From contig JBHIFL010000023.1 in NCBI GenBank assembly GCA_046761065.1, positions 1 through 49,930 of the forward strand: a DNA stretch of 49,930 nt. Direction: 5' to 3'. How positions within the stretch are numbered: the first letter of the stretch is position 1; each line of letters opens with the position of its first letter. The notes under the pieces are model-generated. The model did no database searches. It had not been told where the DNA came from and worked only from the letters and a program-made list of their open reading frames with translations. This document shows positions 1-2,136 of this stretch, piece after piece. Both the position numbers and the translations under genes were made by a program. The stretch is from Candidatus Heimdallarchaeota archaeon. Its GTDB lineage: Archaea; Asgardarchaeota; Wukongarchaeia; Wukongarchaeales; JBHIFL01.

Positions 1-207
1 ATTAATAATAGGTCTTACATTGATTTATTGAAAGTTCCAGGTATCGGTCCCAAAAGTGCTGCAAGGATCATTAAGCTACAGGAAACCGGAGTTAAGATAA
101 AATCCTATGAACAACTCAAGCGGATCGGCGTAGTCTTGCAGCGTGCTAGTCCATTCGTTATTGTTAACGGTAAATTACAAGAAACCTTGGATAAATGGTG
201 GAAATGA
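1..207 (+). CDS. C-terminal part (truncated by window edge) of putative DNA modification/repair radical SAM protein with helix-hairpin-helix domain (TIGR03916-like)
   Basis: Not in ORF track. Frame 1 reads INNRSYIDLLKVPGIGPKSAARIIKLQ...QETLDKWWK*. The LLKVPGIGPKSA HhH motif and the overlap with a DUF4130 gene match the known gene pair. Confidence 0.8.
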   Translation: MNNRSYIDLLKVPGIGPKSAARIIKLQETGVKIKSYEQLKRIGVVLQRASPFVIVNGKLQETLDKWWK

Positions 208-842
208 AGAAAATTGACATCCTTAATCGCTTAAGAAGGAATCAAAATTGTTCTATGGAATTTATAGAACAAGTGAGCAGAGAAGATCCGGAATTTTTTG
301 AAAACTTAGCCACAGACATTGCAAAAAAAGCAGAAAAGCTTGCGAAGGACGTTTCTCGAGAAGCTTATAAAGTCCGAGCATTCACGCGGTTAAATCTATC
401 ACGTCATGGAATACTATTCGCAGCTATTGAACCCAAATATCATGTTGAAGACCTTGTAGTGAAATGGTTCTGGAAGCGCTTTCCCCAGTTCGTGATTGCA
501 CTAGAGTCTAAACTAAAACGAGGAGTGTTCCTTTTCGGACCGGGATTCTCTGATGTAATATTTACTAAGGCACCCCTTAAAGAAGTGATCGAAGATTTAG
601 AATCGCGATTACCAATAAAACCCTTATTAGAAGAGGTTGCTGAATTTTCGGAAAGAATTTGGCAAAAATACTATGCATTCCAATATGTTCCTTCTCGAAA
701 AAATCTTAAACTCTTCTTAAAATTCTTACCTCGAAAATATCAAAAATGGAAGGGATTAGTAACTGAGGCAAGTTTTGGAAACCGGAGATTAGATGAATTT
801 TTTCAACCCGTCATTGATAATAAAAAGGATCAACATTTATGA
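195..842 (+). CDS. DUF4130 / TIGR03915-like putative DNA metabolism protein
   Basis: Motifs VSREAYKVRAFTRL, IEPKYHV..FWKRFP and WQKYY..PSRKNLKL..LPRKY fit DUF4130. Overlaps the upstream radical SAM gene; the start may be ATG 204. Confidence 0.8.
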   Translation: MVEMKKIDILNRLRRNQNCSMEFIEQVSREDPEFFENLATDIAKKAEKLAKDVSREAYKVRAFTRLNLSRHGILFAAIEPKYHVEDLVVKWFWKRFPQFVIALESKLKRGVFLFGPGFSDVIFTKAPLKEVIEDLESRLPIKPLLEEVAEFSERIWQKYYAFQYVPSRKNLKLFLKFLPRKYQKWKGLVTEASFGNRRLDEFFQPVIDNKKDQHL

Positions 843-954: not shown

Positions 955-2136
955 GTGAGTGAATCGGTGAATTTTGAAGAAGAATACTTGAAGACTATTA
1001 TACTCGTAGGCAGACTTATTGAAGAGAAGACAGGGACTAATCTTGTTGATGCATTTTTTGGTCCAGAAAAATTAGCTCCTAACAACATTAACATTACAGG
1101 TCCATTAAATGAAAGTCTAGTGACCACATTGGAGACCTTAGACGATGCTGCAACTCAGATATCAAACCCATTACGTCAGAAATATATTCATTATTCTCTC
1201 ATCTCTCTTAAAACAGTAGTACAGTGGGTTTTAGGTAAACCATTCACATATTTAGATCTCGTTTATTACCTATTTCGCATTCAACCACGTCGGATACCCG
1301 AAAAAACAATTGATAAGGTGCAAAAAAAGCTAGAAGTAGCATGTAAGGATCTTAAGTTACGTGGAAAGAGTATTCATGAAAAGATTAACATTTGGGAGAA
1401 AAAAAACGCCCTTAAAGGACAGGAACTGAAGAGGGCTATCGAAACGGTGGTTGCAACAAGATCACGGGAAATCCAAGAGTTGTTTCAGAAAAAGATTTTT
1501 GCACTACTGCCAGAACCAGTACAAAATAATGGTATTATATGGGAGACCGCCACAGGGAAGCCATGGGGTGGCTATAACTACTATCAGGGGAATTATGTTA
1601 GTAAAAATATAGTTTGTGTCGATAATCCAAGAAATATTGACCAAATGCAAAGGCTGATCACCCATGAAACAGAACACCACATTGCACTTCTGTTTCGGGA
1701 AAAATATTTCCACGAACATCATGCACTCGATCTCGCTGCTGTTCCCCTACACACACCGTCATCTGTAATTGATGAAGGAACCGCAGATTGTGCTCAAGAA
1801 TTTTTGGAGTTAACTAATGGGAGTACATTGGAACAAATGATTAAGTGGCTTCAAGAACTCCGAAGGTTGGTGCGGGTTAACATAGCGTATGATATGAATA
1901 CAAAATGGTTAGATTTTGAAGATGCACTAGAAATCTTATGTGACCGCACGTACACGGATCTTAAGAAGGCCAAATCATTATTACAATTTACTAAACCAAA
2001 TATCACTGGTAAGATTAATTTTTGGGCACCTTATGTTTTCGCATACTTTTTTGGGAAAAAAGATTATGTGCTACCTCTTTTCGAAAAAGCTCGAAAAAAG
2101 GAAAACTTCGCGAATTCTTTGAAATCCTCTATTTAA
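955..2136 (+). CDS. Uncharacterised gluzincin-like (HExxH) metalloprotein, DUF885-like; C-terminus probably continues in the -1 frame to 2189
   Basis: THETEHH followed by DEGTAD; WGGYNYYQG motif; 393-aa ORF. Confidence 0.6.
   Translation: MSESVNFEEEYLKTIILVGRLIEEKTGTNLVDAFFGPEKLAPNNINITGPLNESLVTTLETLDDAATQISNPLRQKYIHYSLISLKTVVQWVLGKPFTYLDLVYYLFRIQPRRIPEKTIDKVQKKLEVACKDLKLRGKSIHEKINIWEKKNALKGQELKRAIETVVATRSREIQELFQKKIFALLPEPVQNNGIIWETATGKPWGGYNYYQGNYVSKNIVCVDNPRNIDQMQRLITHETEHHIALLFREKYFHEHHALDLAAVPLHTPSSVIDEGTADCAQEFLELTNGSTLEQMIKWLQELRRLVRVNIAYDMNTKWLDFEDALEILCDRTYTDLKKAKSLLQFTKPNITGKINFWAPYVFAYFFGKKDYVLPLFEKARKKENFANSLKSSI

Follow-up and report, generated by a model that had tools for sequence, protein, structure and literature searches.

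Two overlapping genes of an Asgard archaeon encode a radical SAM/DUF4130 pair with C-terminal motifs predicted to dock on PCNA

Results

A split radical SAM gene and its overlapping DUF4130 partner

The window analysed here is the whole stretch of 49,930 nucleotides from contig JBHIFL010000023.1 of a Candidatus Heimdallarchaeota archaeon. At its 5' edge (1-207, plus strand) lies the 3' end of a TIGR03916 radical SAM/HhH gene (rSAM hereafter), namely its last 68 codons and the stop, as identified by profile matches and by the alignment of its pieces. This piece matches TIGR03916 over profile positions 324-382 with an E-value of 6e-12. Its translation (1-204) is matched by both Pfam HHH (E 4.5e-7) and HHH_3 (E 1e-6), and the helix-hairpin-helix DNA-binding motif (..LLKVPGIGPKSAARI..) is encoded at 1-72 on the plus strand, i.e., at the C-terminus of the protein. 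Further downstream, bases 178-207 read Q-E-T-L-D-K-W-W-K-stop. That is, a canonical PIP box, QETLDKWW (178-201, plus strand), is followed only by a lysine and the stop codon (205-207), as is seen from the translation and from the archaeal orthologs.

By searching the host's own assembly, we have located the 5' portion of the rSAM gene beyond the window, at the end of the abutting contig C82 (G000:C82:2-1090, minus strand). This piece comprises 363 codons and includes C-S-F-D-C-K-Y-C, the CxxxCxxC signature, which bears out the radical SAM assignment that a preliminary description of the locus had made with the upstream part out of view. The end of C82 and the start of the window overlap by ~16 nt with one mismatch (T/G, M -> R). 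Since the two pieces tile P0004, a 426-aa rSAM homolog of 88% identity from a 'Candidatus Heimdallarchaeota' MAG, aligning to its residues 1-361 (C82) and 359-426 (window), the gene is whole and merely split by the assembly. The break looks like one of strain variation, with no disruption of the gene. Against the TIGR03916 profile, the C82 piece reaches 302 bits (positions 3-326) and the window piece 45.6 bits (324-394), each alone below the cut-off of 343.5, and the full-length P0004 scores 363.2 bits.

The CxxxCxxC motif is invariant in the rSAM alignment A1 (21 rows), and so are three cysteines upstream of it, C61, C85 and C94 in P0004 numbering. These three are kept in 57-58 of ~60 bacterial rSAM orthologs and in most archaeal ones, and the loops that bear them have pLDDT values below 50 in the model described below. 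They may hold a putative auxiliary Fe-S cluster, as in BioB and HydE, which are structurally nearest.

The second gene (204-842, plus strand) encodes the DUF4130 partner and is matched by PF13566 with 78.9 bits (E 5.3e-22; gathering cut-off 27). Overall, these matches agree with the preliminary assignment of the pair to the TIGR03916 HhH and DUF4130 families. There are two candidate starts, ATG 204, where ATGA at 204-207 overlaps the TGA of the rSAM gene, and ATG 195; the former is the likely one, and gives a product of 212 aa. The DUF4130 domain proper, of a weakly DHH/RecJ-like fold, extends over 246-746 (plus strand) and is devoid of the N-terminal ~80 positions of TIGR03915. Actually, TIGR03915 aligns with 69 bits over profile positions 83-237 of 243 only, below its cut-off of 112.25, so that the archaeal DUF4130 is a short form. 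A Q-less PIP-like motif, NRRLDEFF (780-803, plus strand; from the translation and the archaeal alignment), is located in the low-confidence C-terminal tail and is followed by 12 residues and the stop at 840-842.

The starts of the two genes are tightly coupled. In 36 of 37 archaeal loci, counting those with a placeable start, DUF4130 begins between -16 and +37 nt from the rSAM stop. In a Syntrophobacteraceae MAG (L064:230-2215, plus strand), rSAM and DUF4130 are joined in a single 662-aa ORF, which is either a natural fusion or an assembly/frameshift artefact, and which carries no beta-clamp motif anywhere in its frame. In addition, a confident AF3 heterodimer has been predicted for a Lachnospiraceae rSAM/DUF4130 pair (preprint 10.64898/2026.08.19.745780). 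From the coupled starts, the single ORF and this predicted complex, we infer that rSAM and DUF4130 act as one heterodimeric enzyme.

The flanking genes, in turn, are unrelated to the pair (an ABC transporter, DUF2178, a creatininase-like protein, CbiQ and a class II aaRS). The nearest downstream frame, 113 nt after DUF4130, is a 393-aa ORF with H-E-T-E-H (HExxH) at 955-2136 (plus strand); it has no match in Pfam or NCBIfam, and no other locus examined has it next to the pair. A link to uracil-DNA glycosylase (UDG), which had been noted for this family, does not hold for the archaeal pair. The only PF03167 gene of the host is on contig C22, unlinked to the pair and with no obvious PIP, and a phmmer search with this UDG has found none beside the pair in any of 46 archaeal loci. 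In bacteria, the same search places UDG at the pair in 4 of 64 loci, solely as a DUF4130-UDG fusion.

The tail motifs against the genomic background

The host assembly is 91% complete and contains a single PCNA gene (C17, 253 aa); a match to DnaN is absent from this 91% complete assembly. As the host is an Asgard archaeon, PCNA is the clamp that matters here. Both tail motifs are exactly where they had first been described, QETLDKWWK with its stop at 178-207 and NRRLDEFF at 780-803. The claim that both fit the PIP consensus stands for rSAM, whose QETLDKWW is a strict match, but has to be relaxed for DUF4130, which misses the strict consensus because N replaces Q, and whose motif is not at the extreme C-terminus.

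How much such motifs can tell depends on how common they are in the genome. A strict PIP within the last 12 residues is found in 13 of 3,618 crude host ORFs, and ~4 are expected from shuffled tails. According to Pfam, seven of the 13 belong to known PCNA-client families (two FEN1/XPG, Hel308, two NreA, a Y-family polymerase and PolB), and their endings, such as ..Q-V-S-L-D-S-W-F-A and ..Q-A-S-L-D-K-F-F-G-R, are akin to QETLDKWWK. Within the last 20 residues, 25 of 3,618 ORFs have the Q-less pattern [LI][DE]xF[FL]. This set includes an HhH-GPD glycosylase with Q-L-S-I-D-Q-F-F and a second PolB ending in ..S-L-D-S-F-F, and, given this second polymerase, at least one family of genuine clamp clients in the host makes use of a Q-less motif. 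By itself, the Q-less motif is less diagnostic than the strict PIP, being 2-fold commoner in the genome.

These numbers bear on two other explanations. The first is that the likeness of the two motifs to PIP boxes is a matter of chance and has no function, for which it may be said that the motifs are short and degenerate and that a handful of strict C-terminal PIPs per genome, the ~4 given above, are expected by chance. The second is that just rSAM docks on PCNA, while the ..LDEFF.. tail of DUF4130 binds the rSAM partner, DNA or another replisome protein. The missing canonical Q, the distance of 12 residues from the end and the higher background of the loose pattern would all fit the latter; on the other hand, the DUF4130 motif has the spacing and the aromatic residues of a PIP, and a genuine PCNA client of the host, the second PolB, also ends without the Q, directly in ..SLDSFF. 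Both explanations are weighed further with the orthologs below.

The same survey has provided several side observations. The two family-B polymerases (G000:C33:25209-27935 and G000:C75:5860-8244) differ in their ends, one being the canonical K-Q-A-S-L-D-K-F-F-G-R and the other the Q-less ..S-L-D-S-F-F. There are two NreA (Nre_N/Nre_C) paralogs (G000:C9:68611-69897 and G000:C100:5521-6879), both with C-terminal PIP boxes. Two proteins with no Pfam match also have PIP-like ends, ..K-Q-G-D-L-A-K-Y-F-R-I-S (454 aa, G000:C96:2254-3618) and ..S-L-E-K-F-L (300 aa, G000:C72:7247-8149), and can be regarded as candidate PCNA clients.

The tail motifs differ between archaea and bacteria

A word-based protein search with DUF4130 returned 7 close relatives only, and the wider orthologs were drawn from loci. 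We have extracted the rSAM and DUF4130 ORFs from 30 Asgard loci and from 80 named loci (16 archaeal and 64 bacterial). For rSAM, the pattern Q..[LIMV]..[FYW] is present within the last 30 residues in 34 of 45 archaeal proteins, while this PIP type is seen in the last 30 residues of only 6 of 64 bacterial ones. The bacterial proteins carry beta-clamp motifs instead, of the QLSLF, QLDLF and QLPLF types: a strict QLx[LF]F in 40 and a loose form in 57 of the 64. Neither the strict nor the loose form occurs in any of the 45 archaeal proteins. The statement, in the preliminary description, that bacterial members often end in a QLxLF-like motif is therefore confirmed by these counts. The tails differ in length as well, with ~15 residues past the HhH in archaeal rSAM versus ~49 in bacterial rSAM. 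PIP-type endings also recur among the best 120 database homologs of rSAM. The remaining 11 of 45 archaeal tails are without the Q-type pattern; most of them show a degenerate form at the same site (D-T-T-L-E-M-W, E-S-L-L-D-R-W), and some end in V or M with no aromatic residue.

For DUF4130, the tail motif ([LIM]-x-x-[FY]-x in the last 25 residues) is present in 33 of 37 archaeal proteins versus 3 of 53 bacterial ones, and its archaeal form is x-x-[LI]-[DE]-x-[FY]-[FL]. In the four archaeal exceptions the motif is shifted or cut off at the end. The Q-type PIP in the last 30 residues is found in none of the 37 archaeal and in 3 of the 53 bacterial proteins, and strict and loose beta motifs are found in none of either group (0/37 and 0/53). 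Across all 41 archaeal rows of the DUF4130 alignment A2, the motif positions L, D/E and F fall in register, after a linker that is variable in both length and sequence. The bacterial DUF4130, by comparison, stops just past the conserved ..MPKRYWKYL.E.. helix or runs on into a UDG domain. Thus the comparison of C-termini that had been proposed at the outset comes out in favour of motifs that are retained in archaea.

The motifs are kept down to 21% (DUF4130) and ~40-50% (rSAM) identity with the host pair, inside tails that are otherwise variable, and they divide cleanly between archaea and bacteria. The C-terminal motifs of rSAM and DUF4130 exceed chance, and these conservation data effectively refute the chance explanation introduced above, which we consider hardly credible any more. 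They also bear on the proposal that the DUF4130 tail has a partner other than PCNA. In most archaeal orthologs the motif sits at or close to the C-terminus, and it is lacking in nearly all bacterial DUF4130 proteins (all but the 3 of 53 above), whose hosts are without PCNA.

We have further built a FastTree phylogeny of the rSAM core with the tails removed. Archaea and bacteria form nearly two clades with 2 domain changes, so that the motif swap represents few independent events, and the placement of long branches by FastTree is unsure. Three bacterial rows fall in the archaeal clade (Margulisiibacteriota, Chloroflexi and Anaerolineae MAGs), and two of them have QLELF and QLPLW with no PIP. 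Because two of the three bacterial rows in the archaeal clade carry the bacterial type of ending, the tree favours a motif switching driven by the host. That is, the motif seems to follow the host at least in part.

Structure models and co-folding with PCNA

The AlphaFold2 model of rSAM, built for P0004 with alignment A1, has a mean pLDDT of 78 and shows a radical SAM barrel plus the HhH. No PDB relative of rSAM has been found by sequence search, and the nearest solved folds among the 50 Foldseek matches listed are HydE, BioB, PFL-AE, ThiH and MqnE. Spore photoproduct lyase (SPL) is not among these 50 matches, which, together with the negative PDB sequence search, gives no ground for the 'SplB-like' label in the literature (PMC3765255). 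The profiles do not support a likeness to SPL either, as no SPL model is among the NCBIfam matches up to E = 1.

For DUF4130, the mean pLDDT of the model is 83.6; the core (residues 1-140) exceeds 93 and the C-terminal part is poorly defined. The fold matches are weak (DHH, RecJ and PAP-phosphatase; best E 4.6e-3), and the DHH-like reading agrees with the preprint mentioned above (10.64898/2026.08.19.745780). In the tail, pLDDT is ~41-59; the motif region is at ~50-60, and the final eight residues are below 50. In rSAM, pLDDT is 83-92 up to residue 420, with 83 at 411-420, and drops to 45 at 421-426, where a short terminal helix is modelled. The low-confidence tail ends around both motifs therefore fit what is expected for docking peptides.

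A third explanation has to be considered here, i.e., that the C-terminal residues are structural, packing on the HhH or forming the rSAM-DUF4130 interface, and that the likeness to clamp motifs is incidental. The rSAM model is indeed confident up to around residue 420, the ..NG..x.TL.. segment next to the HhH is conserved, and ..NG-x-x-x-T-L.. is kept also where archaeal lineages lack the Q, so that according to the model its conservation could partly reflect intramolecular packing. Against this explanation, the aromatic ends of both tails are of low pLDDT, the bacterial tail is a longer, unconserved extension whose sole constant element is the beta-clamp pentapeptide QLSLF, and known PCNA clients are strongly over-represented among the strict C-terminal PIPs of the host. 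Hence we regard a purely structural role of the tails as quite improbable, and clamp docking remains the preferred reading.

We have also co-folded PCNA (alignment A3) with the full-length DUF4130 (alignment A2), along the lines of the modelling proposed earlier. The score is 0.52, and the best of three controls is 0.00; contact agreement between runs is at least 66%, and the pLDDT of the partner is at least 69. The output reported no interface for PCNA and DUF4130. In calibration, 58 of 80 solved complexes passed the mark, as did 2 of 110 mismatched pairs; with a score no higher than 0.60, just 7 of the 80 solved complexes passed, along with both of these mismatches. In addition, many structures of PIP-PCNA complexes have been solved, and this likeness may therefore add to the score. 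Altogether the co-fold lends weak support to binding. This weakness can be read in favour of a different partner for the DUF4130 tail, and the zero scores of the controls speak against it; taking this together with the motif and ortholog data, we find it unlikely that only rSAM docks on PCNA.

Discussion

Based on the above analyses, the two overlapping genes encode the subunits of a presumed DNA-acting enzyme, each of which probably docks on PCNA. The two tails differ in how firmly this can be said. That of rSAM is very probably a real PIP, while PCNA binding by the tail of DUF4130 is only somewhat favoured. With a PCNA-bearing archaeal host, the radical SAM motif upstream and motifs conserved among the orthologs, none of the refuting outcomes within reach of sequence analysis has come up, and the clamp-docked system adapted to archaeal PCNA that the preliminary description had put forward is supported as a prediction. 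Since the bacterial relatives swap the PIP for the peptide of the bacterial clamp, the family as such is probably tethered to the replication clamp.

In the enzyme that we propose, the catalytic subunit would be the 426-aa radical SAM protein, with a CxxxCxxC [4Fe-4S]/SAM site, three extra cysteines and the C-terminal HhH, and the accessory subunit would be the 212-aa DUF4130 protein with its degenerate DHH-like fold. QETLDKWW and NRRLDEFF, both in flexible tails, would most likely insert into the hydrophobic pocket of PCNA. The enzyme could in this way be tethered by the clamp at primer-template junctions or behind the fork, with the HhH gripping the DNA, and the radical SAM site would generate a 5'-deoxyadenosyl radical through which a DNA base is repaired or modified. 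The bacterial orthologs might do the same via QLSLF on the beta clamp, from an operon that takes part in the DNA-damage response.

Several previous studies are relevant to the last point. The COG1573-COG4277 operon has been predicted in bacterial LexA regulons (PMC8565304), the radical SAM and TIGR03915 genes of Acinetobacter are in the DdaA damage regulon (PMC12392091), and Aravind's group has placed DUF4130 in contexts of SOS and mutagenesis (PMC3765255). Because the bacterial operon is in damage regulons, we infer that the pair is most likely recruited by the clamp to repair DNA or to modify its bases by a radical mechanism. In its full extent the proposal must be tentative: rSAM-DUF4130 could be a replication- or repair-coupled machine for radical-based lesion reversal or base modification, tethered bivalently to PCNA in archaea, with a PIP on each subunit, and in bacteria to the beta clamp, and thus an ancient clamp client of two domains of life whose chemistry would be new to DNA repair.

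In the literature we have found no report of clamp motifs on the rSAM/DUF4130 family, nor of radical SAM enzymes acting as clamp clients, and this one would be the first of its class to be proposed as a client of a sliding clamp. The switch between PCNA-type and beta-clamp-type motifs places the enzyme at the fork, in replication or repair, and the motifs offer peptides, point mutants and a clamp partner as handles for experiments. The enzyme also adds an entry to the PCNA interactome of Asgard archaea, which are the closest prokaryotic relatives of eukaryotes.

Compared with known systems, the pair is closest to the bacterial TIGR03916/TIGR03915 (COG4277 plus DUF4130) system, a widespread operon that in bacteria responds to SOS or DNA damage. 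The two share the radical SAM core, CxxxCxxC, the HhH and a coupled adjacent DUF4130 gene; they differ in that the archaeal DUF4130 is short, that the tails are of the PIP type rather than the QLSLF type, and that DUF4130 gains a tail motif. Some bacterial DUF4130 proteins are fused to a family-4/UdgX-like UDG (TIGR03914/COG1573), while the archaeal pair has neither a UDG fusion nor a UDG neighbour.

Spore photoproduct lyase (SplB, COG1533), a known DNA-repair radical SAM enzyme, is also a radical SAM protein presumed to act on DNA and is linked to SOS in bacteria, but it is a separate family; we know of no HhH, DUF4130 partner or clamp motif in it. With the bacterial beta-clamp clients that carry QL[SD]LF (such as Pol III alpha, Pol IV and MutS), the bacterial rSAM orthologs share what appear to be the same docking peptides (QLSLF/QLDLF/QLPLF), whereas the archaeal rSAM of our host has the PIP form. 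The archaeal PCNA clients (FEN1, PolB, Hel308, NreA, Dpo4-like Y-family polymerases and the HhH-GPD glycosylase) have a similar C-terminal PIP in a flexible tail; here, by contrast, a motif is present on both subunits of a presumed heterodimer, and binding is predicted. Overall, PIP-box clients of sliding clamps are the known part of this comparison, and the new part is the unusual catalytic class together with the swap of motifs across domains.
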